Shown: positions 11,882-58,512, numbered from the stretch's first letter. The stretch is 64,000 nucleotides of DNA from an uncultured Pseudomonadota bacterium (GCA_949298405.1 CASFWA010000001.1:210023-274022); one strand, 5' to 3'. Notes: generated by a model from the sequence alone, not told the origin. Program-made: numbers and translations.

Positions 11882-12808
11882 ATGTTCCGCAAGATTTTAA
11901 TTGTCGCAATGTTTGCAACTGCTGCTGGGTATTGCTTTGCAGCAGATGATTTACCACAAGTTGTCACGTCAGAGGTCTTTTATTCTCAGGGGTCTAATAT
12001 TGACGGTTCTCGTTATTCACAAATAGAATCTAGTCAGGTTGTTGAAACTGAAAATGGACAGGTTGCACAAGTTCCTGTTTGGCCTCTTGCTGGGTCTGAT
12101 GCGGATGTTGAAATTGCTTGTGAGGGAAGTGCTTGTTCAAAGTCCAAACAGAACGACAATATTAGAATTGTTTCAAAAATAGGCGCAGATTTAGTCGTTG
12201 AAAATAATTTTAATCTGGGGTCTTCGGACGGTGATTTTGGTGGTTGGTCTGGTGGTGCAAATATGCTTCATGGTACTCAGATACCGGCAGGTTTTGATGA
12301 CGAATGTAATAACGGTTCTGAAATGCCTTTGCTGCATAGAGAAATGCTAGAAGATGACGGCGGTTCTGTTTTGACTGTGTCTCGCAGTTCTCGTAGAGAT
12401 TGCACTAATTACAAAGATGGGTATGAGGCTTTTGTTGCTAAAATGGGATTGTCAGAAGAAGAAGTTGCAAATGCTAATAAAGTAGAAGGTGTCGAAGCAG
12501 AAATTGCTGTAGATGTTTCGGCAGATGCAGAACCACCGATGGTGCTTATCGATCAGGTTCGTTCATGGGTCGTTGCTAGTGGGCAGACATTGCGTGAGGT
12601 TTTGCAGGATTGGTGCAATAAAGAAGGATGGGATTTGGTTTGGGCGACTTCTCGTGAATATCCAATTGAGGCAAGTGCAGTATTTAAGGGGCGTTTCGTA
12701 GATGTCGCATCTGCGCTGGTTAGAAACTTTTCACGCGCAACGCCTGTTCCTTATGCAAAGTTTTACAAGGGAAACCGTGTGTTAGTAATTTCTACATCTG
12801 AAGAATAG
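11882..12808 (+). CDS. Secreted protein with TcpQ-like C-terminal domain (type IVb pilus secretin partner-like)
   Basis: Signal peptide MFRKILIVAMFATAAGYCFA^ADD. The C-terminal ~90 aa (WDLVWATSREYPIEASAVFKGRFVDVASALVRNF...YAKFYKGNRVLVIS) resemble the TcpQ-family domain that accompanies lipoprotein secretins of type IVb pili. The lipoprotein secretin gene follows immediately downstream. Confidence 0.45.
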   Translation: MFRKILIVAMFATAAGYCFAADDLPQVVTSEVFYSQGSNIDGSRYSQIESSQVVETENGQVAQVPVWPLAGSDADVEIACEGSACSKSKQNDNIRIVSKIGADLVVENNFNLGSSDGDFGGWSGGANMLHGTQIPAGFDDECNNGSEMPLLHREMLEDDGGSVLTVSRSSRRDCTNYKDGYEAFVAKMGLSEEEVANANKVEGVEAEIAVDVSADAEPPMVLIDQVRSWVVASGQTLREVLQDWCNKEGWDLVWATSREYPIEASAVFKGRFVDVASALVRNFSRATPVPYAKFYKGNRVLVISTSEE

Positions 12809-12845
12809 GGTGGTGGTTTTATAAGTTGGCCAGAGGAGAAAATAG

Positions 12846-14474
12846 ATGACGAAACCAATTAAATTTTTTGTTATGTGCGGGATTTTGTGCGCAATAGCAA
12901 CAGGATGTGCAAAAGAAGAATCTGCTAAGGTCGCGGCATCTGTTGATCAGGATTTTATAAATGCGTATGATGCGTTTGAAATGGCTAAAACACCGCGTGC
13001 AAAAGTTGCTAGTGGTGATACTGTTTCTATGTCAGAAGGTGTATGGTTAGGCGCAAGTTCTACTGTTTTGGAACATAGAAATAATCTGCCGTCTCAATTT
13101 GAAACAGATACTGGAATCACAATCCTTTTAGATGAACCTGTGACTTTGCAGGTTTTGGCAAATAATATTAATTCTATTACTGGAATTCCTGTGAAAATCG
13201 ATAGTCAGGTTAATCAGGAAAAATTAAAGAAGACAGTAAATATTGCTTATACGGGCAAGTTATCTGGGTTGTTGTCACAAATCGCAACAGATTTAGATAT
13301 ATTGTGGTATTATGATAAGACGTCTATTGTCTTTTATGAAACAGAAACACAAACATTTACTTTGTATGCACTGGGAACAGATGTTTCTTATCAAACTGCC
13401 GTAGAAACAGATGACGGAAATCAGGTGTCTTTGGAATCTACTTTAAAAGAATGGGATGAAATTGAAAACGCAATTAGTTCTATAATAGGAGATAATGAAA
13501 ATACTAATTTTACTGTATCTCGTAGTTTGGGAACTATTACTGTGACGGCACCTCCGTCTATTTTGACAAGAGTAGGCGATTATATAGCGCGTCAAAATAA
13601 ACGTTTGTCTCAATTGGTGACAATCGATGTTAAGGTTTTGCAGGTATCTATTTCTAATGATTCTGCATTCGGGTTGAATCTGGCTGCGGCGATTAATTCT
13701 GCGTCTGGATTAAATATCGTTGCAAACCCAAAGAATAATTTGGCCACAACAGAGGCTAGTTCTATGAATATTGCTGTTCTGTCTAATACCGTTTCCGCAG
13801 TGACAGGTGCAACACATATGGAGGGAAATACAGAAGTAGCAGGTGCTTATACACAAGACCAAATTAAAAATGGTTCTTTGTCAGGTGCTGCTGGTAGTAA
13901 TGCTCTTATTCAGGCTTTGGCAAAACAGGGTAAGGTTTCTTTGGTAACAAATGTCGGTGTCACAACGCGTAGTAATCGTGTCGCGCCGGTTAATAATACA
14001 AAAACGACAGGGTATATTAAACGTTTTGAATCTCGTAACTTTACAACAGTTGAATCAAGTACTGTTGACCAGGATGACTTGGAAACAGGGTTCTCGATGC
14101 AGTTGTTGCCGAACGTCTTAGAAAACGGAAAGATATTATTGCTGTTCAGAATGTCTGTACGTGAATTGTTAAAGATGTCAACTCAGACAATCGGGGAGGT
14201 TACCTTGCAATTACCAGAAGTAGAAGAACGTAGTTTTATGCAGGAAGTAATCATGGAATCAGGACAAATGTTAGTTGTTTCTGGGTTCGAAAAGCAGACG
14301 AATAATGATACCCGTTATGGTTTAGGTGATCCTGACTTTATGGCTCTGTCTGGTTCGCGTGAAACAACCGCAACGCGTGATGTGTTGGTGGTTATCTTGA
14401 CTCCGCAAGTTTTGGTTAGTCCAATGGATGCAGAACGAAATATTCAGCAACATTGGGGGGCACCTCTGAATTAA
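12846..14474 (+). CDS. Lipoprotein secretin (type IVb pilus TcpC/PilN/BfpB-like outer-membrane channel)
   Basis: Lipoprotein signal MTKPIKFFVMCGILCAIATGC. Secretin core LSQLVTIDVKVLQVSISNDSAFGLNLAA.... C-terminal secretin tail MLVVSGFEKQTNNDTRYGLGDPDFMALSG...RDVLVVILTPQVL. Confidence 0.75.
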   Translation: MTKPIKFFVMCGILCAIATGCAKEESAKVAASVDQDFINAYDAFEMAKTPRAKVASGDTVSMSEGVWLGASSTVLEHRNNLPSQFETDTGITILLDEPVTLQVLANNINSITGIPVKIDSQVNQEKLKKTVNIAYTGKLSGLLSQIATDLDILWYYDKTSIVFYETETQTFTLYALGTDVSYQTAVETDDGNQVSLESTLKEWDEIENAISSIIGDNENTNFTVSRSLGTITVTAPPSILTRVGDYIARQNKRLSQLVTIDVKVLQVSISNDSAFGLNLAAAINSASGLNIVANPKNNLATTEASSMNIAVLSNTVSAVTGATHMEGNTEVAGAYTQDQIKNGSLSGAAGSNALIQALAKQGKVSLVTNVGVTTRSNRVAPVNNTKTTGYIKRFESRNFTTVESSTVDQDDLETGFSMQLLPNVLENGKILLLFRMSVRELLKMSTQTIGEVTLQLPEVEERSFMQEVIMESGQMLVVSGFEKQTNNDTRYGLGDPDFMALSGSRETTATRDVLVVILTPQVLVSPMDAERNIQQHWGAPLN

Positions 14475-16620: not shown

Positions 16621-17643
16621 ATGTCTAATTTATTTAATAAGTTATTAATACTTCGTACGCCTGGAATCGGGCCTGTAAAATATAACGATTTAATAAAACG
16701 CTTCGGTACATTGGATGAGGCTGCGGCTTCTTTATCAGATAATGATTTGGTTCGTGAATCTGTTTTGAATGAATTAGAACGGGCTGAAAAGAATAATATT
16801 CATTATATATGTGATGATGAAGATTTATATCCCGCTAAACTTAAAGAGATAAAAAAACATCCGCCGGTCATATCTGTTAGAGGAAACGTTAATACTTTGA
16901 AAAAGTCAATAGTAAGTATTGTCGGTACGCGTCATGCAACTGTTGCAGGTATGGAGTTCGCCGCAGAGTTAGGAAGAAGGTTTGCAGATAATGGTTATGC
17001 AGTGGCATCGGGCATGGCAATTGGGACAGATGCTGCCGCACATCGCGGGGCGTTAAAATCTGAGGGCACTTCGCAAACAATCGCGGTTGTTGCAGGTGGG
17101 GTTGATTATATATGGCCACTAGAAAACGAATCGTTATATTGGGATATTGTAAATCGTGGTGCAGTAATAAGTGAGATGCCTGTTGGGTTTGAACCAATAG
17201 CAAATAATTTCGTACAAAGAAATAGATGGGTTGCAGGAATCTGCGAAAAGTTGATATTAGGTGAGGCTGATTTAAAGTCGGGTAGTATGACAACTGCGCG
17301 ATTCGCTATTGAATATGGCAAAAAAGTATACGCAATTCCGTCACACCCTTCGGATTCTAGGAGTTTGGGACCAAATTCATTAATAAAAAGTGGTGCTGCA
17401 GAATTGTGTTTAGGAGTAGATGATTTTTTCAAATCAGAAAAAAATACATCTAATGTGAAAAAAAATTCTGAAAAAAATAAAACAGAAAATTCTTTATTAG
17501 ATGCCCTAGGAACAATTCCCGTATCTGAATCTGTATTGGCAGAAATTGTCAAAAAAAATATTTCGGAAATTAAAAGCGATTTAGTGGTCTTAGAATTGCA
17601 GGGTTTGATTCAAAAAGTTGACGGTGGTTATATTCGAAGATAA
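16621..17643 (+). CDS. dprA: DNA processing protein DprA (Smf), natural-transformation ssDNA/RecA loader
   Basis: Rossmann-like DprA core IVSIVGTRHATVAGMEFAAELGRRFADNGYAVASGMAIGTDAAAHRGAL and EMPVGFEPIANNFVQRNRWVAG. There is a C-terminal winged-helix-like extension. Confidence 0.85.
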   Translation: MSNLFNKLLILRTPGIGPVKYNDLIKRFGTLDEAAASLSDNDLVRESVLNELERAEKNNIHYICDDEDLYPAKLKEIKKHPPVISVRGNVNTLKKSIVSIVGTRHATVAGMEFAAELGRRFADNGYAVASGMAIGTDAAAHRGALKSEGTSQTIAVVAGGVDYIWPLENESLYWDIVNRGAVISEMPVGFEPIANNFVQRNRWVAGICEKLILGEADLKSGSMTTARFAIEYGKKVYAIPSHPSDSRSLGPNSLIKSGAAELCLGVDDFFKSEKNTSNVKKNSEKNKTENSLLDALGTIPVSESVLAEIVKKNISEIKSDLVVLELQGLIQKVDGGYIRR

Positions 17644-34642: not shown

Positions 34643-35590
34643 TTATTTCGTTTTTTCGTTTGAGCCCATAATATTTTTGATTTCATCAACGCAATTATCA
34701 TAGATATTTTTGCGTCCTGTACCCAGATAGTCACGTGGGTTAAAGTTTTCTGGTTTTGTTGCCAATGTTTCGCGAACACCAGCGGTGAATGCTAAGCGGG
34801 AATCGCTGTCCACATTTATTTTGCATATATTCATTTCAACTGCATGACGTAATTGTTCGGCAGGTATACCAAGTGCGTTGGATAGTTTACCGTCATATTC
34901 GTTTATTGTTTTTACAAAGTTTTGCGGAATGCTGGATGCGCCATGTAATACCAATGGAAAATCTGGTAACTGTTTTGCTATTTTTTCTAAAATATCAAAA
35001 CGTAGTTCTTCGTTTTCTGTTTTCCTTTTATATGCACCGTGACTTGTGCCGATTGCAATCGCAAGAGAATCTATATTTGTTGCGTTTACAAAATTTACAA
35101 CGTCATCAGGGTTGGTATAACTAGATTCTGTGTTTTGTGTGTTTTCGTCTTCTATCCCTGAAAGAGTACCTAATTCTGCTTCTACACTTACATCGTATTT
35201 GTGTGCAAAGTCCGCAACTGTTTTTGCTAATTCTATGTTCGCATTAAATGGTAATTTTGACCCGTCTATCATAACACTTGAAAAACCAAGTTTTATAGCA
35301 TTAACGCACGATTCAAAACTGGAACCGTGGTCTAGGTGCAGACTTATTTTTTCTTCCGGTTTTATATGTAAACCCCATATCATACCCATTAGTAGGCTAG
35401 GTCCCATATATTTTAATGCAGATTCTGATACTGCAAGAATGACAGGGCTTTTTGTGTCTCGTGCAGCGGATACAATGGCAGACAATGTTTCCATGTTGTA
35501 AAAGTTGAATGCGGGTACTGCATAATGCTTTGAAATTGCGTCAGAAAAAACTTCTTTTGTATTAACTAAACCGAAATCTTTATAGTCCAT
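34643..35590 (-). CDS. fba: Class II fructose-bisphosphate aldolase
   Basis: MDYKDFGLVNTKEVFSDAISKHYAVPAFNFYNMETLSAIVSAARDTKSPVILAVSE is a class II FBA N-terminus. The Zn-binding His residues (LHLDHG, LVLHGASS) are present. ATG at 35590 with AAGAGGAAG RBS. The six-frame ORF extends further upstream. Confidence 0.85.
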   Translation of the reverse strand: MDYKDFGLVNTKEVFSDAISKHYAVPAFNFYNMETLSAIVSAARDTKSPVILAVSESALKYMGPSLLMGMIWGLHIKPEEKISLHLDHGSSFESCVNAIKLGFSSVMIDGSKLPFNANIELAKTVADFAHKYDVSVEAELGTLSGIEDENTQNTESSYTNPDDVVNFVNATNIDSLAIAIGTSHGAYKRKTENEELRFDILEKIAKQLPDFPLVLHGASSIPQNFVKTINEYDGKLSNALGIPAEQLRHAVEMNICKINVDSDSRLAFTAGVRETLATKPENFNPRDYLGTGRKNIYDNCVDEIKNIMGSNEKTK

Positions 35591-35758
35591 AATGTCTTCC
35601 TCTTTTCTTGGTATTATAGCATAATAAACTTTGCGGTGCGTAAATAAATATAGGAATCTTTTAGTTGACAAATACTTGACAATGAATATTTTTGTGCAAC
35701 AATTATAATACGAATCGGGAGATGGTCTGAGGATAGGCAGAGTTTAAAAGGTGTTATT

Positions 35759-44486: not shown

Positions 44487-44631
44487 TTTTCCCCTCAGTC
44501 TTACTATATTGTGTAATTACCTATATGAAATTTAGCAAATTTTTTTAAAAGATGTCAATATTTTGTTTTTTTATGCTTTGGAATGAATGCCGTTTTGTGA
44601 TAGAATGGGTAAAAAAGTAGGAGTGTTTAAA

Positions 44632-45363
44632 ATGAAAAAAGTTATTTCCGTTTTAGGTTTGTTTAGTTTGGTCGCAACCGCAGCAAATGCGGCACCCAGT
44701 CATATTATGCGTGATTCCAACGGTGGGTATCTTGTCACATATGATTATACGGATAAGGCAAAAACTGGTTGGTATGTCGGTGCGCGCGCAGATTTAAATT
44801 TTCTGAATTGGGAAAATAAATATAGCGTAGATTCTGGGCTGACTGCTTCGGAAGACTATGCTTCGGATAAATATTCTTTTGAACCTGTTTTTGGTGGTAG
44901 TGTTTTTGCAGGTCGTAGTTTCTCATATTTTTGGCGTGCTGAATTAGAAGCAGGTTATATGGGTTATTTCGAAGATAAAGATGGTGAATCTGAATTTACT
45001 ATGCAGATACCTTATTTAATGGTTAATGGATATTATGATTTCACAAATGGTTTGTATTTAGGCGCAGGCGTTGGTGTTGCTATGCCTATTACAACAATTG
45101 ATTTGGGTGCTACTTTGGCTACAACGGATGGAAGTGACCGTAAAGAATATGGTTTTGCACCTATGGCTGGGGTTATGTTGGGATATTCACATAAATTGGA
45201 TGACAATTTAGTTTTAGATGTTCGTTATCGTTTAGCTGGAATGACCGGTTTGGATCAGCGTGTAAATATGTTTATTGAAGGTGAAAATTCTCATTGGTTT
45301 CAAAATGATATAGATTTTATTTTGGATAATTCTATATCAATTGGTTTGAGATATGAATTTTAG
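44632..45363 (+). CDS. Small outer-membrane beta-barrel protein (OmpA/OmpW-like porin family)
   Basis: ATG at 44632 with AGGAG RBS. Signal peptide MKKVISVLGLFSLVATAANA^APS. Alternating amphipathic strands. C-terminal ...IGLRYEF. Confidence 0.65.
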   Translation: MKKVISVLGLFSLVATAANAAPSHIMRDSNGGYLVTYDYTDKAKTGWYVGARADLNFLNWENKYSVDSGLTASEDYASDKYSFEPVFGGSVFAGRSFSYFWRAELEAGYMGYFEDKDGESEFTMQIPYLMVNGYYDFTNGLYLGAGVGVAMPITTIDLGATLATTDGSDRKEYGFAPMAGVMLGYSHKLDDNLVLDVRYRLAGMTGLDQRVNMFIEGENSHWFQNDIDFILDNSISIGLRYEF

Positions 45364-45426
45364 TATAGGAAAACAGTTGACCCGATTCGCAAAAATGTGA
45401 TATTATGTGATACGTAGAGAGAATAA

Positions 45427-47553
45427 ATGAAAAACGAATTAAAAATTTCAACGCTTGCGATAGTTTGTGTGTTGTGTACCGCTTTATCAAGTGCGTATGG
45501 TGCATCTTCTGTACGTTCTTTGGGTGGTACGGGTACTTATAGTAGTGCGTCAAGTGCTAGTGCTGCAAGTTCAAGCAGTACCGCGGCGGCGCGTAGTGGC
45601 TCTGTACGTGTTACACCGACCACGGGTGTTTCAGGTAGTAGTGCAACTAATACTAGTTCAACGAATAGTAGACGCGTTACAACAACACCGCGTTTATCTA
45701 TAGGTAAGTATCTTGGGGGTAGTACTTCTGTTAGTACAGGAAGTTCTTTGCGTCCACAAACACCAAGTGGTGGCTCGTCTTCTGGTGGTGATGGTTCTAT
45801 GGATCCTGAGGTTGCGGCAAATTTGCAAAAAGCAGTTGAGGACTTACAGGATAATATTGTCGACTTGAAAGATGCAGATGATGAGATAAAGGGGTTGTTG
45901 GAAGAAAAACAGAATGCTTTAATTCCGACAGATGATTATATCACTATCGAAAACGATGAAATTTTTGTAAACGTTGATAATTTGAAAGAAGCACTTGCGG
46001 GTGCTACTGGTGAAGATGGTCGTGAAATTGAATTGGATAAGGTTGGCGATTATTTGGTTTGGCGTTATGTAGGTGATAGTTCTTGGAATAATTTAATAGC
46101 TATTGCAGATATTACTGGACCACGAGGTCCCCAAGGTGAAAAAGGTGAACCGGGTGACCCTGCTAATTTGACTGATTATCCTACAAAAACAGATATGGAA
46201 GATGCGATAAGTGCGGCAGTTGATAATTTGGCTGCAACTTATGCAACAAAAGAAGAATTGGCAGATTATGTCAAGACGGAAACTGCAAATGCAATTTATG
46301 CGACAAAAGACGAATTGTCAGGAAAGTTGGATAGTGATGCTTTGGCAGGTTATGCCACAACAGTTGGTGTGCAAACTGCTATTAGGGAAGCGACTGATGG
46401 TTTGGCTACAAGCGCAGAATTAACCACGGGTTTGGCGGGTAAGGCAAATGTTGCTGATGTTTATACTAAATCCGAAGTTTATAATAAAACAGAAGTAAAT
46501 GACCTTGTTGCCGATGTTGCTGCCGGTGATATGCAAGAAGCTTTAAAGGATTATGCAAAAACAAGTGATGTAGAGGCTGGTTTGGCTGAAAAAGCAGATA
46601 AGACTGCATTGGATTCAAAGGCTGACGCAACAGTTGTAGATGCGCTTTCTTCAAAAGTAGATACGATTGGGGTGGCTGCGGATAATGCAGGTCTTGCGGC
46701 GACGGCGGCAGCGGAAACTGCTGGTGCTGCAAAAACAACTGCGGAGGCGGCGCAAGCAATTGCAAATGCTGTTTCGGGTGAAGTAGAAACTGTTAAAACT
46801 ACTGCTGATACGGCTAAAACCACGGCTGATGCAGCAAAGACAGCGGCGGATGAAGCGAAAGAATTGGCAAGCGGGGCAAGTGACGCGGCACAAGCAGCGC
46901 AAGATACTGCGACTGCGGCACAGGACAAAGCGGATGCGGCTGCATTGGCGGTGGCTTCGAAAGCAGATAAGGCCACTACTCTTGCTGGATATGGTATTAC
47001 TGATGCTTATACAAAAACAGAAGTTGACTCTAAAGTAGAAGGCTTGGCGACGGATGCAGATTTGACCGAGTTAGAAGGAAAAGTTCAGACGAATACTTCA
47101 AATATAGGCGCGTTAAAAAACACAGTTGGTGAAGGTGCTTTGACAACTACTGCACAAAACTTGGTTGGTGCGGTTAATGAATTAAAAACCAAGACTGATG
47201 GTATGGCAACTGACGGTAATTTTGAAGAAATGAATAACAAAATTACTCAGATGGAACAGACGGTTAATACTGCGGTTGGGGCTATAGAAGGTAAGGCTGA
47301 TACAACTTATGTTGATGAACAGTTGGCAACAAAAGCAAATACAGCAGATTTAGGTACTTTGGCTACAAAATCTAAAATTACAAATGATGACGTTGCGGAT
47401 GATGCGGCTATTGCACGTACAAAATTAGCAGAGGATGTACAGGCGTCTTTGGATAAGGCAGATGCTGCTATAAGTATGGTTGGTGCAGGAACAGATGCTG
47501 TTTTGGGCGTGGATAGTAACGGTGACAAAGTTTGGTATGAGATAGCATTTTAA
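45427..47553 (+). CDS. Secreted fibrous surface protein 1: Ser/Thr-rich spacer, collagen-like Gly-X-Y run, phage-tail-fibre-like repeats, Ala-rich coiled-coil
   Basis: Signal peptide MKNELKISTLAIVCVLCTALSSAYG^A. 110-aa S/T/G low-complexity region. GPRGPQGEKGEPGDP. Repeats YATKEELADYVKTETANAIYATKDELSGKLD, DKATTLAGYGITDAYTKTEVDSKVEGLATDADL and ARTKLAEDVQASLDKADAA. Confidence 0.7.
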   Translation: MKNELKISTLAIVCVLCTALSSAYGASSVRSLGGTGTYSSASSASAASSSSTAAARSGSVRVTPTTGVSGSSATNTSSTNSRRVTTTPRLSIGKYLGGSTSVSTGSSLRPQTPSGGSSSGGDGSMDPEVAANLQKAVEDLQDNIVDLKDADDEIKGLLEEKQNALIPTDDYITIENDEIFVNVDNLKEALAGATGEDGREIELDKVGDYLVWRYVGDSSWNNLIAIADITGPRGPQGEKGEPGDPANLTDYPTKTDMEDAISAAVDNLAATYATKEELADYVKTETANAIYATKDELSGKLDSDALAGYATTVGVQTAIREATDGLATSAELTTGLAGKANVADVYTKSEVYNKTEVNDLVADVAAGDMQEALKDYAKTSDVEAGLAEKADKTALDSKADATVVDALSSKVDTIGVAADNAGLAATAAAETAGAAKTTAEAAQAIANAVSGEVETVKTTADTAKTTADAAKTAADEAKELASGASDAAQAAQDTATAAQDKADAAALAVASKADKATTLAGYGITDAYTKTEVDSKVEGLATDADLTELEGKVQTNTSNIGALKNTVGEGALTTTAQNLVGAVNELKTKTDGMATDGNFEEMNNKITQMEQTVNTAVGAIEGKADTTYVDEQLATKANTADLGTLATKSKITNDDVADDAAIARTKLAEDVQASLDKADAAISMVGAGTDAVLGVDSNGDKVWYEIAF

Positions 47554-47565
47554 GGGGTTTAAACA

Positions 47566-49410
47566 ATGAAGAAAATAAATTTCATTTTTTCTGGATTTTT
47601 AGCATCATTGTTGCTTGGTGTCGGTAATGTTAATGCTGCAACAAGCGGTGATCCTGTTAGAATTGCTAGTCAAAAATATGTTGATGATAAAGAAACAGCT
47701 ATATTAGAAAATGTAGAACAGAATTATGCCAAACAGGAAACTGTTAATCAAATAACAGAAAATGTTACTACTGTGACACAGCAGGTAACACAGTTAGGTG
47801 ATACGATTAATAATGAAGAAACAGGCCTTGGTGCACAGGTAGAACAGGCTGTTACAGATGCGGCGGCTGCACAAGAAGCAGTTAGCGGTTTAGAAAGTTC
47901 TGTATCGTCTTTGACAGAAACTGTAAATCAAAAAGCAGATGCGGCAGCCCTTGCAACAAAAGAAGATAAGGATAATAAAGCGGCATCTATTACTGCTGAG
48001 AATCAGACTTCTGGTACTGCGTATCCATCTGTTGGTGCAATCGTAGAATGGACAAATAAGAAAATAACAGAATTATCAGATACAGGTTTGCCAGTTAATC
48101 CAGATAATATAAATGATAATTCTATTGCTGGCAGCAAGTTGGAAAATGGCGCAGTTACAACAGATAAAATTGCTGATGAGGCGATAACAGAAGATAAGTT
48201 GAGCCAGGATTTAAGCACAACTATTGCAGGCAAAGAAGATAAGTCCAATAAAACTCAGACTATTGATGAATCTTCTACATCAGAACAATATCCGTCTGCG
48301 GCAGCAGTTCATACGGCGTTGCAGGGTAAGGCAGATACAAGTGTGTTGGAAAATTATGTCACAACAACTGAGGTCGAAGAAATAAATCAGAATATTACAA
48401 ATGTGAAACAGCAGGTGACGCAGTTAGGTGATACAATTAATAATGAAGAAACAGGCCTTGGTGCACAGGTAGAACAGGCTGTTACAGATGCGGCGGCTGC
48501 ACAAGATGCTGTTAGTGGTTTAGAAAGTTCTGTATCATCTTTGGCAGAAACTGTAAGTCAAAAAGCAGATGTGGCAGACTTGGCGAAAAAAGAAGATAAA
48601 GATAATAAAATACAAGAAATAACAGCAGAATCCACTGCGGAACAATATCCTTCTGCGGTTGCGGTTCGTACTGCTTTGGGAGCCAAGGCAGATGCAAGTG
48701 CTGTTGAAAGCATTACACAAAATATAACGAATATAAAACAGCAAGTAGAACAAATTACCGACCCAGAAACTGGTTTGGCTGCTGATGTTGAACAATTACA
48801 GACGGACATTGCTGGTAAAGCAAGTGCAGAATCTGTTGCAACATTAGAAGGAACTGTGACAAGTCAGGGTGGGCGTTTAACAACCGCAGAAGGTGAAATT
48901 GATGCTTTGCAAACGGCTTCTGCAACACATGCGACGACGGCTGCATTAACAGAAGGATTGGCATTGAAAGAAAATGTTGCGAATAAGGCAACGACTATTG
49001 GGACAGATAACCAAAGTTCGCCGACTGTATACCCATCTGTTGGTGCAATCGTAGAATGGACAAATAAGAAAATAACAGAATTATCAGATACGGGCTTGCC
49101 AGTTAATCCAGATAATATAAATGATAATTCTATTGCTGGCAGCAAGTTGGAAAATGGCGCAGTTACAACAGATAAAATTGCTGATAAGGCGGTGACGCAA
49201 GAAAAGTTAAGTGACGATTTAGTTAGTGAAATTTCCGGTAAAGCAAACGTGTCTGACGTTTATACAAAACTGGAAACAAATGAAAAGATTGTGGAACTGG
49301 CGGTGCCTCAACCAGAAGGTGAATGTATGGCAGAATCCGGTTTGTGTGTGTTGTCTGTTGGAACAGACGGGCAGTTCAAATGGGTAAATGTAACAGAGCC
49401 GGCACAATAA
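47566..49410 (+). CDS. Secreted fibrous surface protein 2 (tail-fibre-repeat family, internally duplicated)
   Basis: Signal peptide ...GVGNVNA^ATSGDPVRIASQKYVDDKE. Near-identical internal blocks: QQVTQLGDTINNEETGLGAQVEQAVTDAAAAQ... occurs twice, and SVGAIVEWTNKKITELSDTGLPVNPDNINDNSIAGSKLENGAVTTDKIAD occurs twice. Confidence 0.7.
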   Translation: MKKINFIFSGFLASLLLGVGNVNAATSGDPVRIASQKYVDDKETAILENVEQNYAKQETVNQITENVTTVTQQVTQLGDTINNEETGLGAQVEQAVTDAAAAQEAVSGLESSVSSLTETVNQKADAAALATKEDKDNKAASITAENQTSGTAYPSVGAIVEWTNKKITELSDTGLPVNPDNINDNSIAGSKLENGAVTTDKIADEAITEDKLSQDLSTTIAGKEDKSNKTQTIDESSTSEQYPSAAAVHTALQGKADTSVLENYVTTTEVEEINQNITNVKQQVTQLGDTINNEETGLGAQVEQAVTDAAAAQDAVSGLESSVSSLAETVSQKADVADLAKKEDKDNKIQEITAESTAEQYPSAVAVRTALGAKADASAVESITQNITNIKQQVEQITDPETGLAADVEQLQTDIAGKASAESVATLEGTVTSQGGRLTTAEGEIDALQTASATHATTAALTEGLALKENVANKATTIGTDNQSSPTVYPSVGAIVEWTNKKITELSDTGLPVNPDNINDNSIAGSKLENGAVTTDKIADKAVTQEKLSDDLVSEISGKANVSDVYTKLETNEKIVELAVPQPEGECMAESGLCVLSVGTDGQFKWVNVTEPAQ

Positions 49411-49461
49411 AGAACTAACTAACGAAACTAATTAACTAACAAAACAAAAAAGGAAAGGAAA

Positions 49462-50673
49462 ATGAAAAAACTAACAGCAGGTATATTTGCAACATTATTG
49501 ACAGTTGTCACTGTCGGAGCTGCAAATGCAGAAATCGCATCAAGAACTTATGTTGATGATCAGGTCGGTACAAGAGCCACAACAGCAAGCGTAACTACTT
49601 TGACAGGTCGTGTAGATACTGTAGAAGGTACTGTTACAAGTCAGGGTGGGCGTTTGACAACCGCAGAAGGTGAAATTGATGCTTTGCAAACTGCTTCTGC
49701 AACACATGCGACAACGACTGCATTAACAGAAGGATTGGCAGGTAAGCAGGATAAAGCATTGATTCAATCTGCACAGTATAGTGATAATACGACCAACGAT
49801 ACGTCATATCCATCTGTAAAAGCAGTTGCAGATGCTATCGATAGTGTAACTGGTAATGTGTCTGGCGTTAAAGAAGATGTTACAGAATTACAGGGAACTG
49901 TTGCTGGTTTACAAACAGGTAAAGCAGATAAAGCCACAACATTACAAGGTTATGGTATCACAGATGCTTATACAAAAACAGAAGTAGATTCTGCTTTGGA
50001 TGCAAAAGCAAATACAGCAGATTTGGGCGCTTTGGCAGAAAAAGACACAGTAAGTGCAGCAGATATTGATGCAAACGCTGTCACAACGGCAAAAATTGCA
50101 GATAAAAATGTAACAAAAGCAAAATTGGCAGATGACGTTCAGGCGTCTTTGGGTAAGGCAGATTCTGCTTTGCAACAGGCTGCTTTGGCAGATTATGCAA
50201 AAACTGCAGATGTTGATGCAGATTTGGCGTTGAAGCAAGATAAAACAGATAATACTCTTGCAACTACACAAAAAACAGTTGTTGGTGCTATTAATGAAGT
50301 AAATACTAAAGCAGGAACTGCAGCGGCAGATGCAACACAAGCAAAATCTGATGCAGCACAGGCAAAAACAGATGCAACACAGGCGAAGTCTGATGCAGCA
50401 GCAGCAACGGCTGCAGCAGAAGAAGCAACAACTGCTGCGACAACTGCAACACAGACTGCAACACAGGCAAAGAGTACTGCTGATACAGCAAGTCAAACTG
50501 CAACACAGGCAAAGAGTACTGCTGATACAGCAAGTCAAACTGCAACAGAAGCAAAGGAAGCGGCTTTGGCAGCAATACCAAAACCAACAGATCCTAGTTG
50601 TGAAAACCCAACAAATAAGTGTGTTTTGACTTATAATAACTCTGCTTATGAATGGGAAGTTGTTGCAAGATAA
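49462..50673 (+). CDS. Secreted fibrous surface protein 3 (tail-fibre-repeat family, Ala/Thr tandem repeats)
   Basis: Signal peptide ...VGAANA^EIASRTYVDDQV. Shares TVTSQGGRLTTAEGEIDALQTASATHATT with gene 2 and GYGITDAYTKTEVDS with gene 1. Tandem TATQAKSTADTASQ repeats. Confidence 0.7.
   Translation: MKKLTAGIFATLLTVVTVGAANAEIASRTYVDDQVGTRATTASVTTLTGRVDTVEGTVTSQGGRLTTAEGEIDALQTASATHATTTALTEGLAGKQDKALIQSAQYSDNTTNDTSYPSVKAVADAIDSVTGNVSGVKEDVTELQGTVAGLQTGKADKATTLQGYGITDAYTKTEVDSALDAKANTADLGALAEKDTVSAADIDANAVTTAKIADKNVTKAKLADDVQASLGKADSALQQAALADYAKTADVDADLALKQDKTDNTLATTQKTVVGAINEVNTKAGTAAADATQAKSDAAQAKTDATQAKSDAAAATAAAEEATTAATTATQTATQAKSTADTASQTATQAKSTADTASQTATEAKEAALAAIPKPTDPSCENPTNKCVLTYNNSAYEWEVVAR
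50455..50538 (+). repeat. Exact 42-bp tandem duplication inside fibrous protein gene 3
   Basis: ACTGCAACACAGGCAAAGAGTACTGCTGATACAGCAAGTCAA occurs twice consecutively, encoding TATQAKSTADTASQ x2. Confidence 0.85.
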
Positions 50674-50753
50674 TCTTGTTGGTATCTTGATGTGCGGTAT
50701 TTCATAAATATATCGCACATCAAAAAAAGTTTGCGTGAGTTGCGATTTAGATA

Positions 50754-52457
50754 GTGAAACGAAACAGTTTTTTAGGTAGAATAAAAATGATGAATACAAA
50801 AGGTCTTTTTGCAGTTTCTTTAATAGCAATGCTTGCTATGGGAACAGCTAATGCAGATATCGCATCCAAAAAGTATGTTGATGTACAGGTTGGTGGACGT
50901 TTGTCTAGCATTAGTGGTTCTACCAGTGGAACAGGTAATGTTGTCACTTCGGTTTCTGCTAGTGGTAGCACTGTTTCTGCAACAAAAGGTATAACTGCAG
51001 AAGAAACAAAAAATAAAGTTACAACTGTTCGTGCAACTGCATCTGCAACAGATACGGCTTATCCTTCTGAAAAAGCGGTTGCTACTGCTTTGGCAGGTAA
51101 GGCGGATTCTGCAGATATTCCAACTGTAAATAATGCAACACTGACAATTCAGAAAAATGGTTCTAATGTCGGTACGTTTACTGCAAATGCGGCTTCACCA
51201 GCAACTATCAATATTACAGTACCTACAACAACATCTCAGTTGACTAATAATAGTGGTTTTATTACTGCTGATGATTTGCCAGAAGATTATGTCTTAACTG
51301 CGGCTACATCTGATAAGTTGGGTGGTGTAAAAAGTGGTGGGGATATAACTGTCGGAACAGACGGTACTGTCACAGTAAATAGTGCAACAAGTGCAGATAA
51401 AGCAACAACCGCAACTAGTGCGACTAATGCTACAAATGCAACGAATGCTACAAAAGCAACACAAGACGCATCGGGTAATGTTATTACAACTACTTATGCT
51501 ACGAAGACTGAATTAACTTCTGGGTTGGCAGATAAGGCCAATGTTGATGATTTAGCAACGGTTGCAACATCTGGTTCGTATAATGATTTAACAAATAAAC
51601 CAACTATACCTACTGTGGATTCTGCTTTGAGTTCTTCAAGTACAAACCCTGTTCAGAATAAGGTTATAAATTCTGCTTTGGCAGGTAAGTTAAGTACATC
51701 TGGTACGGCTGCAAAAGCAACTGCAGATGCAAACGGGAATAACATCGTTAATACTTATGCTACAAAAACAGCATTGGCTTCTGTAGAAGCTGATGTTGCT
51801 ACTGCGCAATCTACTGCAGATGATGCGGCAGATGCAGCGGCAAGTGCGCAATCTGCTGCAAATACAAAGGTTGCAAAAGCACAGGGCTCTACGAATGCAA
51901 ATAAAGTTTTAATTACAGATGGGTCGGGTAATGTTGCAACTGGTACTGTCAGCAGTGCTATGATAACAGATGGTACAATAACAAATGCAGATATTTCTTC
52001 TTCGGCTGCAATTGCACAGTCAAAGATATCTGGCTTGACAAATTCGTTAAATGCAAAGGCTAATACCGCGGATTTGGCAGATGTCGCAACGTCTGGTTCT
52101 TATAACGATTTAACTGATAAACCTTCTATCCCTGCTGCAATAACAGTAGATAGCGCTTTAAGCAGTACAAGTACAAATCCTGTTCAGAATAAGGTTATAA
52201 ACACCGCTTTGGCAGGTAAGTTAAGTACAACTGGTACGGCTGCAAAAGCAACCGCAGATGCGAATGGCAATAATATTGCTAGTACTTATGCAACAAAGTC
52301 TCAGATTACTGCTTTGGATAGCACTTCTTCTGGTACAGGGGCCGTTGTCACAGCGGTTTCACAGACTGATGGTAAGGTTTCTGTCACAAAAGGAAATGTT
52401 AAAATCCCTGTTGGCAGTGAAAGTGCTACGACTTATGCAACCATCTGGGTTGAATAG
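50754..52457 (+). CDS. Secreted fibrous surface protein 4 (tail-fibre-repeat family)
   Basis: Signal peptide ...MGTANA^DIASKKYVDVQV. Two copies of ATSGSYNDLTNKPTIP...DSALSS(S/T)STNPVQNKVIN(S/T)ALAGKLST(S/T)GTAAKATADANGNNI, a phage-tail-fibre-type repeat. Confidence 0.7.
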   Translation: MKRNSFLGRIKMMNTKGLFAVSLIAMLAMGTANADIASKKYVDVQVGGRLSSISGSTSGTGNVVTSVSASGSTVSATKGITAEETKNKVTTVRATASATDTAYPSEKAVATALAGKADSADIPTVNNATLTIQKNGSNVGTFTANAASPATINITVPTTTSQLTNNSGFITADDLPEDYVLTAATSDKLGGVKSGGDITVGTDGTVTVNSATSADKATTATSATNATNATNATKATQDASGNVITTTYATKTELTSGLADKANVDDLATVATSGSYNDLTNKPTIPTVDSALSSSSTNPVQNKVINSALAGKLSTSGTAAKATADANGNNIVNTYATKTALASVEADVATAQSTADDAADAAASAQSAANTKVAKAQGSTNANKVLITDGSGNVATGTVSSAMITDGTITNADISSSAAIAQSKISGLTNSLNAKANTADLADVATSGSYNDLTDKPSIPAAITVDSALSSTSTNPVQNKVINTALAGKLSTTGTAAKATADANGNNIASTYATKSQITALDSTSSGTGAVVTAVSQTDGKVSVTKGNVKIPVGSESATTYATIWVE

Positions 52458-52772: not shown

Positions 52773-53327
52773 ATGAAAGTACTATTGTCGGGACTATTAT
52801 TCTTTTGTTGGGTTTTATTTCCTAATAATCTTAGAGCAGGGGATTTTATCGGTAATTTAGGGGATATTATTTCTTTTAAAGTTTTGCCTGTTTATTCATT
52901 TGCTGCAACTGTATATAATTCTGATTGGAATACTTGGTATGATTATGACTGGAACGGGTTAAAGCAATTAATTGTTGTTAATTTAATAAAATCAACTGTC
53001 ACAGATACTTTGAAAGAAAATATTTCTGAACAAAGACCTAATAAAAAAGGCTTTGATAGTTTCCCGTCTGGTCATACCGCAAATGCTTTTGCAAATGCGG
53101 CTTTTATACACAGGCGTTATGGTATAAAACAGGCAATTGTTCCTTATGTCTTGGCTTCGTTCGTAGGATATTCAAGAGTACAGTCGCGTTGGCATTATAC
53201 TCATGATGTTCTGGCGGGGGCGGCGGTAGGCTTCTTGTCTGCGTGGATATTTGCAGAAAGAAAGCAGAATATGTTTATTGCTGCAGATACTGAAAGCGTT
53301 GCACTTAGGTTTAGTACCCAGTTTTAA
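52773..53327 (+). CDS. PAP2-family phosphatase (undecaprenyl-diphosphate/lipid phosphatase-like)
   Basis: PAP2 motifs KenisEQRP (KX6RP), PSGHTA and SRVQSRWHYTHDVLAG (SRX5HX3D). Signal/TM N-terminus. Confidence 0.8.
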   Translation: MKVLLSGLLFFCWVLFPNNLRAGDFIGNLGDIISFKVLPVYSFAATVYNSDWNTWYDYDWNGLKQLIVVNLIKSTVTDTLKENISEQRPNKKGFDSFPSGHTANAFANAAFIHRRYGIKQAIVPYVLASFVGYSRVQSRWHYTHDVLAGAAVGFLSAWIFAERKQNMFIAADTESVALRFSTQF

Positions 53328-53920
53328 AAAAGCGATATTAAAAAAACACCCAGACCTGCTGCAATAATTGCGGTAATCGTTAGCGGCCAAAAATATTTTT
53401 TTACAATCGCATTTGCGCGTTCTTGGAAAAAATAAAGTAGCGCAGCAATTATTCCAAAGCGGCCTGTGCGGAATATCGCAGATACTGCCAAGAATATCCA
53501 AATTGGGTAACCAATAAAACCAAGCCATATTGCAAGTAGTTTATATGGAATAGGGGTGACCGCGGTTAATACTATTATCAGAATCCCATATTTACTAAAC
53601 ATTGGCTTTATTGCTGTTTCTATTAGTTCTGGATTTGAAAATGTGTTTATTAACCAAATACCTACGGAATCCCAAAGCCAGGCACCTATAAGATATGCAA
53701 TTGCACCGCCTACAATAGACCCAAGTGACGTAGCAACCGCAATCGGTACAGCACGTTTTTTGTTGGCTATTATTGGTGGAGTCATAAATACTTCTGGTGG
53801 AATAAACAAAAATATGGATTCGCATATTGTTAAAAGGAATACTATCCATGAATATGTTTTGCTTTCTGATTTCTGTAAAATATATTCTGCGAATTTCATT
53901 ATTTTTCCCTTGGCTGACAA
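53324..53920 (-). CDS. YqaA/DedA-related small inner-membrane protein
   Basis: 198 aa with 4-5 TM helices. ESIFLFIPPEVFMTPPII and ...AIWLGFIGYPIW pattern resembles YqaA family proteins. Confidence 0.5.
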   Translation of the reverse strand: MSAKGKIMKFAEYILQKSESKTYSWIVFLLTICESIFLFIPPEVFMTPPIIANKKRAVPIAVATSLGSIVGGAIAYLIGAWLWDSVGIWLINTFSNPELIETAIKPMFSKYGILIIVLTAVTPIPYKLLAIWLGFIGYPIWIFLAVSAIFRTGRFGIIAALLYFFQERANAIVKKYFWPLTITAIIAAGLGVFLISLF

Positions 53921-57513: not shown

Positions 57514-58512
57514 ATGGCTCACCAATTCTTTTTTAATCCTTTTATACTAGATAATCTGCCGGCACCAAGTTCTGGATTTGATGTCGTGCAAGATATATCA
57601 GAACCAAGATTGCGCATGTATATAACTAGCCGTGGTGTAAAAAGTTTCTTTGTTAGAAAACGGGTTCACGGTAAGGACAAAAGAATAATAATAGGTAATT
57701 ATCCTGAAACTGATATAGAAACGGCTAGGGCGGCTGTGCCAAATATTTTACAAGAGGCTGCGAAAAAGAAGCCTATTCGTCATAAAAAAATTTTAATGCG
57801 TAAATTGTTAGATTTATATATGACGAATCGGGTTAGAAGAAATAGTTATTCTTATGATAAATTAGAACGTGCTATTGATAGACATTTAAAAACTTTGTTC
57901 GAAAGATATGTTTCAGAAATTTCTTCTCTGGATATTGCAAATGTTATTAGTGCGATAGAAGGTCGGGCGATTGCAGGTAGAATGCAGGAATTTTTGCAAA
58001 GTGTTTTTAAATATGCTATTGATATTGGATATTCTAAACAGAACCCTGTATTAGGGTTACCGAAGATAGAACAAAAACGTCGCGTTAGACCTTTAAATAA
58101 ATTCGGGTTTAATAAGCTTGTTCGTGTTATAGAAAAAGAAAAAAATCAGAATCTTCGTGCTGCTTTCTTAATGCTGATTTATGGTTTTGCGCCAAAATCA
58201 AAGATTTTTTCTATGCAATGGAAAGACCTTGATTTTAACCATTATACTTGGTGTGACAGACCTTTGTCGGATGCAGCGGTTGTTTTGTTGCAGGATTTAC
58301 CACAAGATAGTAAGTGGGTGTTCCCTGGTCGTGGTAGAGGACATTTAACAGACCCAAGATTAGCATGGAAACATATTGCAGAAAAAGCAGGTATCCCAAA
58401 TTTAACAATGGATGATGTTTATAAGTTTTTATCCCGTCAACTTGTTTGGGCTTCTGATAAAGAAGATTTTAGAGCAAATATGAATGCTGTTATTGATGAT
58501 GTGATGGCCTAA
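57514..58512 (+). pseudogene. Integrase-like protein (P4-type tyrosine recombinase N-terminal arm-binding/SAM-like domains) lacking the catalytic residues; probable mobile-element remnant
   Basis: The N-terminus (FFFNPFILDNLPAPSSGFDVVQDISEPRLRMYITSRGVKSFFVRKRV) matches the integrase arm-binding domain. At the catalytic-domain positions, GFAPKSK replaces the first Arg, MDDVYKFLSRQ replaces HxxR, and the protein ends before the catalytic Tyr. The 332-aa reading frame is intact. Confidence 0.55.

Follow-up and report, generated by a model that had tools for sequence, protein, structure and literature searches.

The window analysed here is a stretch of 64,000 nucleotides (nt) from an uncultured Pseudomonadota bacterium (GCA_949298405.1 CASFWA010000001.1:210023-274022). 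Head to tail on its plus strand, between positions 45427 and 52457, lie four genes that probably form a conserved cluster for exported fibre proteins in a gut alphaproteobacterium related to Candidatus Enterousia, the modules of which recombine within and between lineages. Gene 1 (45427-47553) is an open reading frame (ORF) of 708 amino acids (aa), gene 2 (47566-49410) one of 614 aa, and gene 3 (49462-50673) one of 403 aa. Gene 4 (50787-52457) encodes 556 aa when read from an ATG, which is also the length given by the gene calls of its orthologues; the mechanically delimited ORF begins at a GTG at 50754. Repeats within and between these genes, synteny, recombinant alleles in related loci, patchy differences between strains and a similarity at synonymous sites that reaches across species were all observed.

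The repeats, all of which are given on the plus strand, were located by self-BLASTN of 45-53 kb, a repeat finder and Tandem Repeats Finder (TRF). Every block listed in the initial annotation, in which a mosaic of near-identical DNA blocks had been described, was recovered in this way. All the repeat blocks are in frame, and the BLAST E-values put their similarity far above chance. Block A is present twice in gene 2, as A1 (47750-47979, aa 62-138) and A2 (48380-48609, aa 272-348), over 230 nt with 89.6 % identity (E 1e-85, self-BLASTN), and the longest exact run common to both copies is 71 nt. A1 lies in a coiled-coil segment predicted by AlphaFold2 (AF2) to be helical. The pair had originally been placed at 47779-47985 and 48409-48615, between which 186 of 207 positions are identical, and the true block is wider. 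Block B, also of gene 2, consists of B1 (48016-48213, aa 151-216; YPSVGAIVEWTNKK...LPVNPDNI...GAVTTDKIAD) and B2 (49024-49221, aa 487-552), the latter of B1-type sequence. The two are 92.4 % identical over 198 nt (E 4e-80, self-BLASTN), have two exact runs in common (90 and 59 nt), and differ synonymously in 6 of 66 codons; B1 is the best-conserved module in the gene 2 family. The existence of this repeat, as first proposed, is borne out (158 of 165 positions are identical between 48026-48190 and 49034-49198), but its second copy had been placed one base off: the true offset is 1008, and at an offset of 1007 just 45 of 165 positions match. Block C connects two genes. Its copies, at 48845-48963 in gene 2 (EGTVTSQGGRLTTAEGEIDALQTASATHATT.ALTEGLA) and at 49622-49740 in gene 3, are 95 % identical over 119 nt (E 9e-50), within a few bases of the 117-nt block seen earlier. 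The reading frame is kept in both genes, and the copies differ by five synonymous changes (in about 39 codons) and one non-synonymous change.

Genes 1 and 3 are connected by three further repeats. A diverged KADKATTL.GYGITDAYTKTEVDS module, already pointed out in the initial annotation, was recovered at 82 % identity (46960-47031 in gene 1, 49921-49992 in gene 3). Beyond what had been described, a KLA.DVQASL.KAD module is shared at 88 % (47420-47469 and 50120-50169) and a third repeat at 91 % (47330-47363 and 50003-50036). Also new are an internal repeat of gene 4, with copies at 51549-51766 and 52071-52297 (about 80 %), and a 21-nt (7-aa) tandem array of DATQAKS units in gene 3 (50329-50397; 3.3 copies, TRF). 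The tandem duplication of 42 bp in gene 3 is exact, as had been reported, with 42 of 42 positions identical between 50455-50496 and 50497-50538. It is followed by a partial third copy that extends to 50556, the entire region of 50455-50556 being scored by TRF as 2.4 copies at 96 %. As modules recur at 80-95 % DNA identity both within and between genes, homologous recombination appears to act on them.

Recombination at the repeats was seen directly when orthologous loci were compared, a check that had been proposed together with the description of the blocks. The gene 2 alleles P0014-P0017 (393-397 aa) lack exactly 210 aa, from a point inside A1 to the matching point in A2, the deletion junction falling inside block A. 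The single A copy of locus L004 carries A1-type polymorphisms at its 5' side and A2-type polymorphisms at its 3' side, which is the pattern expected of a crossover between A1 and A2. P0017 was found on 19 contigs, and the Logan k-mer-graph contigs among them run unbroken through block A. Two B-type blocks, B1 and B2, are present in gene 2 of most other species examined, and the short allele of 393-397 aa is therefore probably the derived form. Block A itself occurs in a long ('VEQAVTDAAAAQ.AVSGLESSVSSL') and a short form ('VDKAVADATAAKEAVDG-L'), and either form may occupy A1 or A2, depending on the strain. In L026, a central patch of A1 is near-identical to the A2 of other strains, while its surroundings are identical to the window. 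In all, 505 homologues of gene 2 were found, close alleles ranging from 393 to 642 aa.

A second type of exchange is suggested by block B. Protein identity between B1 and B2 is 43-54 % in six other species, as against 87-91 % in the window and in L001. The B2 of the window is 71-80 % identical to foreign B1 sequences and 53-60 % to foreign B2 sequences, which is the pattern expected from conversion of B2 by B1. Block C is present in gene 3 of the window, L001 and L029, and in a diverged version in L026, L027, L028 and L004; a C-like insert of 28 aa is found within A1 in the L001 group. In gene 3, the Ala/Gln-rich 21-nt arrays differ among alleles in the number and content of their units, and a 10-aa repeat, TYETKANATA, is present in two, three or zero copies depending on the allele. 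The region of the 42-nt repeat is shortened or replaced in L026, L027, L004 and L029, and in L028 the GYGITDAYTK (KADKATTL.GYGITDAYTKTEVDS) module has been swapped for a cassette resembling gene 4. Gene 4 has lost one of its internal repeat units (87 aa) in L001 and gained a duplicate of 98 aa in L004. In L031 (8001-9962), genes 1 and 2 are fused to one gene of 653 aa, which leaves an array of three genes. The fusion protein is made up of aa 1-291 of gene 1 (signal peptide, Ser/Thr-rich region and collagen module) and of gene 2 from B1 on. The earlier suggestion that the repeats drive variation is thus supported in so far as length and sequence variants are found at the blocks, although the largest signal lies between strains and species and not inside one genome; the antigenic effect suggested along with it is an inference.

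A gene 2 variant of another kind was observed on a 2.4-kb scaffold (L030, 393-1427). It has a junction between B1 and B2 and ends in a 3D domain (PF06725) in place of its own C-terminus. This may be a genuine chimera, with a lytic or cell-wall-binding protein for example, but a misjoin at the exact repeat of 90 nt would explain it too, and the scaffold was not relied on.

Exchange between strains is evident from the near-clone L026. Its upstream flank differs from that of the window by 2 mismatches in 4,426 nt, while in the fibre core (46400-52457), over about 6 kb, 156 positions are mismatched and 192 nt are gapped. These differences are confined to about ten patches of 66-700 nt that are 2-10 % divergent, with identical stretches between them. 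Exchange between species is indicated by comparison with L001, a separate GTDB species representative, and with L029. The flanks are 74.6-78.5 % identical to those of the two loci, whereas the tract that starts near aa 325 of gene 1 and extends through gene 4 (46400-52457) is 93.5 % identical to L001 and 92.3 % to L029. The change-over in identity is sharp, both at about 46.4 kb inside gene 1 and at the end of gene 4. The number of synonymous substitutions per synonymous site (dS) relative to L001 is 1.85 for LepA, 1.09 for the outer-membrane barrel protein encoded upstream of gene 1, and saturated for FtsE; it is 0.039 for gene 3, 0.27 for gene 4, 0.32 for gene 2 and 0.42 for gene 1. With a low dS in the fibre genes and a high one in LepA, the signal is independent of protein constraint. 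Over most of its length, gene 3 of the window is 97-99 % identical to foreign species and closer to them than to the near-clone L026. The contrast in dS together with this affinity of gene 3 indicates that fibre DNA moved recently between species and repeatedly between strains. Natural transformation may have been the entry route, as the window carries DprA and a TcpQ-like/secretin pair (see below).

Gene-wide ratios of non-synonymous to synonymous substitution rates (dN/dS) are 0.09-0.70 for the fibre genes, with 0.40-0.70 for gene 3, whereas FtsE, LepA and the barrel protein have ratios of 0.02-0.06 when compared with L004. The values for the fibre genes, being above those for housekeeping genes, show relaxed or diversifying pressure, which is no proof of positive selection. 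Outside the coding sequences, genes 2 and 3 are separated by an AACT/CTAA-rich spacer that measures 51 nt in the window, 50 nt in L028 and L029 and 30 nt in L001, with a repeat pattern that varies by lineage. In the window, TRF reports an imperfect AACT-rich tetranucleotide tract in this spacer at 49413-49440.

The four proteins are built along the same lines. All N-termini are signal-peptide-like, with basic residues, a hydrophobic stretch and a small-x-small site. The mature N-terminus of genes 2-4 opens with IAS(K/R/Q)xYVD, and each protein closes with a short VL....G...W..V motif, the C-terminal hairpin motifs being 17-22 aa long. In gene 1, the signal peptide is followed by a Ser/Thr-rich region, coiled coils, a tail-fibre-like module, an alanine-rich coiled coil and an VLGVDSNGDKVWYEIAF hairpin. 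The segment of about aa 187-251 contains five collagen G-X-Y triplets after the phage-tail-fibre-like module. It matches annotated phage tail fibre genes in tblastn, and within it aa 197-246 match the tail-category family phrog_19976 (E 5e-8). A further stretch, aa 338-364 (GKANVADVYTKSEVYNKTEV), matches the GCN4-fusion coiled-coil construct of PDB entry 7oaa (E 0.04). Gene 2 consists of a signal peptide, IASQKYVD, the blocks in the order A1-B1-A2-C-B2, and a C-terminal C..C with LCVLSVGTDGQFKWVNVTEPAQ. Gene 3 consists of a signal peptide, IASRTYVD, block C, the module shared with gene 1, Ala/Gln-rich 7-aa arrays and a C-terminal CVLTYNNSAYEWEVVAR. In gene 4, a signal peptide and IASKKYVD precede beta-rich modules (DLATVATSGSYNDLT..NPVQNKVIN..TYATK) and a C-terminal YATIWVE.

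Structure prediction by AF2 gave a model of gene 3 with a predicted local distance difference test score (pLDDT) of 70, in which a helix at mature residues 250-348 mostly exceeds pLDDT 90 and a C-terminal beta-hairpin is located at 363-378 (block pLDDT 76-82). The AF2 monomer of gene 2, made with 54 sequences, is mostly helical with a C-terminal hairpin at 570-584; its confidence is low (pLDDT 54), too low to resolve block B. Scans of the four proteins against Pfam, NCBIfam and PHROGs gave no match above the curated thresholds, weak coiled-coil or tail-category matches being the only ones obtained. PDB searches with the single protein sequences yielded no or marginal matches, and no match at E <4 was obtained when the gene 3 model was compared with the PDB by Foldseek. 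At the level of a family profile, gene 3 has weak matches to P22 gp26 (E 0.006) and T4 fibritin (E 0.027). The four proteins are taken to be exported alpha/beta coiled-coil fibres that are probably trimeric and would be located at the surface. The label of fibre genes given to them in the initial annotation is reasonable, although they fall outside every described fibre family.

The explanation that is favoured here would proceed as follows. The cluster is probably transcribed as an operon, with a second start ahead of gene 4, and would specify four Sec-exported fibrous proteins composed of coiled coils, beta-layer motifs and short modules of the phage-tail-fibre type. The N-terminus and the gene-specific C-terminal beta-hairpin are conserved, and the shaft is a string of repeated modules. 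Homologous recombination probably acts on these in several ways: by unequal crossover between two copies of a module, through which the intervening DNA is deleted or duplicated, by gene conversion, through which one block is written over another, and by slippage or unequal exchange, through which gene 3 gains or loses 21-nt units. Parts of the locus are probably also replaced, patch by patch (0.07-0.7 kb), by fibre DNA taken up from other strains and species. The trimeric fibres, once exported to the surface, may attach the cell to a partner or host and be under selection for diversity.

A number of points weigh against this explanation. The comparison sequences are all metagenome assemblies in which co-occurring strains may be mixed, and the variation is one seen between assemblies. 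The 393-aa allele of gene 2 could in principle be the older state, which was rated unlikely. Gene-wide dN/dS is below 1 throughout. The signal peptides were read by eye and not by a predictor, and neither an anchor in the outer membrane nor a secretion partner dedicated to the proteins was found. The idea of a trimer derives from motif resemblance and weak profile matches (E 0.006-0.04), and confidence in the AF2 monomers is moderate (pLDDT 70) or low (pLDDT 54).

Alternative explanations for the mosaic have to be considered as well. As all the comparison loci are metagenome contigs or metagenome-assembled genomes (MAGs), it might be an assembly artefact produced by the collapse, skipping or mixing of repeats or strains. 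Exact runs of 90 and 59 nt in block B and of 71 nt in block A can confuse short k-mers, and L030, in which B1 is joined to B2 and then to unrelated 3D-domain sequence, may be a misjoin of this sort. Such an origin is nevertheless very unlikely, because the same architectures recur across independent samples and assemblers. The 614-aa form of gene 2 is present in P0001-P0004, its two-copy layout in the independent assemblies P0002-P0004 and in L026/L027, the 642-aa form on 3 contigs from 3 samples, and the 393-aa form on 19 contigs, the Logan contigs with the latter form being unbroken at block A. The tract shared across species is 92-93.5 % and not 100 % identical, with lineage-specific insertions that are alike in L001, L028 and L029. 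Furthermore, the repeat copies differ at 5-10 % of positions, which makes assembly collapse unlikely. Old duplications that are held similar by selection on protein structure, with no ongoing recombination, would fit the presence of two B-type blocks across most of the clade, by which the duplication is indeed old. They are a highly improbable explanation for the similarity as a whole, since this reaches synonymous sites in blocks B and C, since B1 and B2 are far apart in other species while the B2 of the window is nearer to foreign B1, and since near-identical strains differ by discrete patches. Rewriting of one repeat copy from another by a diversity-generating retroelement (DGR) was considered because the gene 1 module matches phage tail-fibre N-terminal domains of the type that occurs in the DGR target protein Mtd. 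The probability of this is negligible: the mismatches in block A (C>A 5, A>G 6, G>A 4, A>T 3, C>T 3, and others) are not adenine-specific, by which a retroelement mechanism is excluded, and no reverse transcriptase is present among the neighbouring genes examined.

Two further alternatives concern the nature of the locus. Tandem paralogous surface genes with shared blocks resemble known variation loci, and with the AACT-rich tract between genes 2 and 3 they could suggest programmed antigenic or phase variation within a clone, by way of silent cassettes, an invertible segment or frame-shifting repeats. This is unlikely, as no fibre-like partial copies were found elsewhere in the window by blastn (tblastx gave chance-level matches only) and no inverted repeat pairs of at least 30 nt in 45-53 kb. 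All four genes are full length and have their own signal peptides in every species examined, the coding tandem units of 21 or 42 nt are multiples of 3 that keep the frame, and the three closest strains do not differ in the AACT tract. The only integrase-like gene is 5 kb away, at a conserved position. The genes might also be tail fibres of a prophage, a tailocin or a gene transfer agent, and the mosaic ordinary phage mosaicism. Weak PHROG matches to tail-category families and the match of aa 187-251 of gene 1 to annotated phage tail fibres point in that direction, as does the presence of short modules of genes 1, 3 and 4 in IMG/VR contigs, including a 726-aa viral protein that carries 'DLALKQDKTDNTLATTSKTVVGAINEVN'. 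A phage origin of this kind is distinctly unlikely in view of the signal-peptide-like starts of all four proteins, which virion fibres do not have, and of a site that is fixed between housekeeping genes in every related locus examined, with no other phage genes nearby. Genes 2 and 4 had no tblastn match in 50,697 phage genomes, and the gene 2 family had no relatives in the IMG/VR scan. The viral DNA matches measure 45-85 nt at 75-86 % identity; being short and diverged, they indicate a common pool of modules and not a recent transfer. A conserved fibre cluster with recombining modules is therefore preferred over these alternatives.

Among known systems, the one that behaves most similarly is the badA island of Bartonella henselae, which contains the gene of the trimeric autotransporter adhesin (TAA) BadA and flanking badA pseudogenes (PMC8859334). 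Both organisms are Alphaproteobacteria, and in both a conserved genome contains a variable island for a long, modular and repetitive surface fibre with paralogous copies; isolates differ in length and domain order, which has been ascribed to recombination among homologous domain arrays (PMC8859334). BadA is a type Vc autotransporter with a C-terminal anchor barrel and a head, neck and stalk, whereas the fibre proteins described here end in a hairpin of about 20 aa. Unlike the badA copies, the four paralogues are intact, belong to four separate orthologous groups and have DNA that is common to several species. No YadA-like anchor or other TAA anchor family was found in a Pfam scan of the four proteins at E up to 1, and no Pfam match to TAA head, neck or stalk domains was obtained, short beta-layer-like motifs, which also occur in TAA stalks, being all that was seen. 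With neither anchor nor head domains, the proteins are not autotransporters.

In structure, the proteins resemble most nearly the phage fibres of the fibritin, gp26 or HylP1 type. In the HylP1 phage tail fibre, 'HAATKAYVDKAI' and 'KADKETVYTKAESKQE' form beta-layers in homotrimeric alpha/beta coiled-coil fibres (PMC4786415, eLife). These beta-layers resemble 'IASKKYVD' and 'DAYTKTEVD' of the present proteins, which have in common with fibritin, gp26 and HylP1 that segmented coiled coils are broken by motifs such as 'A(T/S)KxYVD' and 'DxYTKxE'. The AF2 models have a small C-terminal beta-hairpin where fibritin carries its foldon, although no fibritin family (Fibritin_C) was found in the Pfam scan of the four proteins. 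The phage proteins differ in that they are virion parts without signal peptides, and their sequence similarity to the proteins described here is marginal. The mosaic adhesive trimer (MAT) fibres of Bdellovibrio bacteriovorus carry a domain that is conserved and rich in beta structure, about 130 aa long, right after the signal peptide (PMC10769870). In their likely biology the proteins of the window recall these fibres, which are similar in being phage-tail-fibre-like, in having a signal peptide, in occurring in a cell-dependent bacterium as several mosaic paralogues, and in having one end conserved for retention by the cell (PMC10769870). In the proteins of the window, however, both ends are conserved and the shaft varies, and a helix is predicted after the signal peptide. 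In the AF2 models of genes 2 and 3, unlike in the MAT N-terminal domain, helix sets in within about 10 residues after the mature N-terminus. No S74 or lectin-type domain, as in MAT-type tips, was found by Pfam, and the C-termini are short and conserved per gene across species. Streptococcal M proteins vary in size by recombination between repeats inside the gene. They too are coiled-coil surface fibres in which in-frame repeat blocks give longer and shorter variants, but they form dimers that are anchored to a Gram-positive wall, and one gene encodes them, with no four-gene array or allele pool shared across species. Promoterless partial donor copies of the type known from pilE/pilS, msp2 or vlsE were not found in the window by blastn, and the four genes are complete.

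That repeat-rich surface-fibre genes diversify by recombination is a known general principle and comes as no surprise. The mechanism is thus familiar; the protein family is undescribed and clade-specific. Retained by each of the related species that were examined, coding for four exported fibres and varying more than any other part of otherwise identical genomes, the locus of about 7 kb is a strong candidate for the structure in contact with a partner cell, the host or a phage. Flanks of 75-78 % identity around fibre DNA of 92-93.5 % present a clear and testable case of gene flow across species at one locus, and the fibre locus can be used as a marker in strain tracking. Members of Rs-D84/Enterousia are uncultured gut residents that are suspected to depend on other cells (PMC12306168). 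It is possible, though rather doubtful, that the cluster is the partner-attachment apparatus of a genome-reduced and obligately partner-dependent bacterium, assembled from phage-fibre modules, the shaft DNA of which would be an allele pool that co-resident species share through natural transformation and kept diverse by phage, immune or partner selection.

The loci closest to that of the window belong to MAGs of an uncultured Alphaproteobacteria bacterium and of two Candidatus Enterousia species. Genomes of the order Rs-D84/Enterousia are mostly smaller than 1 Mb and without flagella, and its members are probable obligate symbionts or parasites (PMC12306168). In loci of 16 further species the cluster occupies the same site, in the order TolB ... 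FtsX-FtsE-Pal (minus strand), an outer-membrane beta-barrel gene, the fibre genes, and VTT/DedA-RbfA-(GNAT)-LepA. Six of these 16 contigs are cut short, with one flank visible only, and every contig that spans the whole locus has the four genes in the same order. The fixed site without phage genes around it indicates a core locus of the clade and not a prophage. Across 13 species-level loci, the N- and C-termini are conserved per gene position and the lengths vary, orthologues of gene 1 being 557-929 aa, of gene 2 393-668 aa, of gene 3 324-595 aa and of gene 4 302-724 aa.

Upstream of gene 1, TTGACC-18 nt-TATTAT with a TG extension (45377-45406, plus strand) is the best consensus match of the region and a putative promoter, judged from its sequence; its hexamers are kept in 7 of 7 compared loci, other species included. 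In the spacer between genes 3 and 4, a hairpin read from the sequence (GATGTGCG...CGCACATC, 50689-50721) is followed by an A-run, and it is likewise kept in 7 of 7 compared loci. An ORF of 295 aa on the minus strand (49942-50829), antisense within gene 3, was taken as a by-product of the repetitive sequence and not as a gene.

The short repeats that come after block B ('GAVTTDKIADEAITEDKL'-like; positions 196-270 of alignment A3, about 48150-48260 of the window) match giant proteins. In a profile search of the representatives of a library of 1.8 billion proteins, which gave 595 representatives at E 1e-30 or better, the giant proteins measured 1,000-5,400 aa and matched in as many as 32 stretches apiece, and a few dozen family-sized matches were obtained besides. 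The repeat is a widespread fibre repeat that is not covered by the families in the Pfam scan. As the giant proteins match short 'GAVTxDKIAD'-type repeats alone, the search says little about the range of the gene 2 family. Modules are also found in viral sequences: KADKATTL.GYGITDAYTKTEVDS occurs in genes of viral contigs at 75-86 % DNA identity, and an IMG/VR viral contig with a GC content of 35 % (L033, 7935-8831) has at least five tandem copies of the 'ADKATTL.GYGITDAYTK' module.

Immediately upstream of the cluster, the beta-barrel gene (44587-45363) encodes a protein of 258 aa with a signal-peptide-like start, which weakly matches the Opacity porin family (E 4.5e-4) and the family of the Rickettsia adhesin Adr (E 8.7e-5). 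All loci that include the upstream flank have it in syntenic position; it is fairly divergent, with a dN/dS of 0.26 relative to L001, and might anchor the fibres. Directly after gene 4, a PAP2 phosphatase gene (52773-53327) is absent from L001, L028, L029 and several other species, and the PAP2/VTT region (52850-53723) has two patches that diverge between the window and the near-clone L026; the variable zone thus reaches slightly past the fibre genes. An integrase-like protein of 332 aa (57514-58512) matches the Arm DNA-binding and central integrase domains only, with no catalytic-domain match at E up to 1e-4, and its gene is found in the same place after LepA in related species.

Farther away, a class II fructose-bisphosphate aldolase (PF01116, E 6.5e-92) is encoded on the minus strand at 34643-35671, an enzyme stated to be absent from Rs-D84 genomes (PMC12306168). 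Either the organism differs in this respect or it falls outside the surveyed set. A TcpQ-like gene (PF10671, E 3.7e-18) adjoins a secretin gene (PF00263, E 2.9e-13) at 11882-14474, and DprA (PF02481, E 3.6e-62), the recombination mediator of natural transformation, is encoded at 16621-17643, 2 kb past the secretin pair and just before DnaA. Together these genes may serve in DNA uptake, or they may provide the fibres with an exit through the outer membrane.

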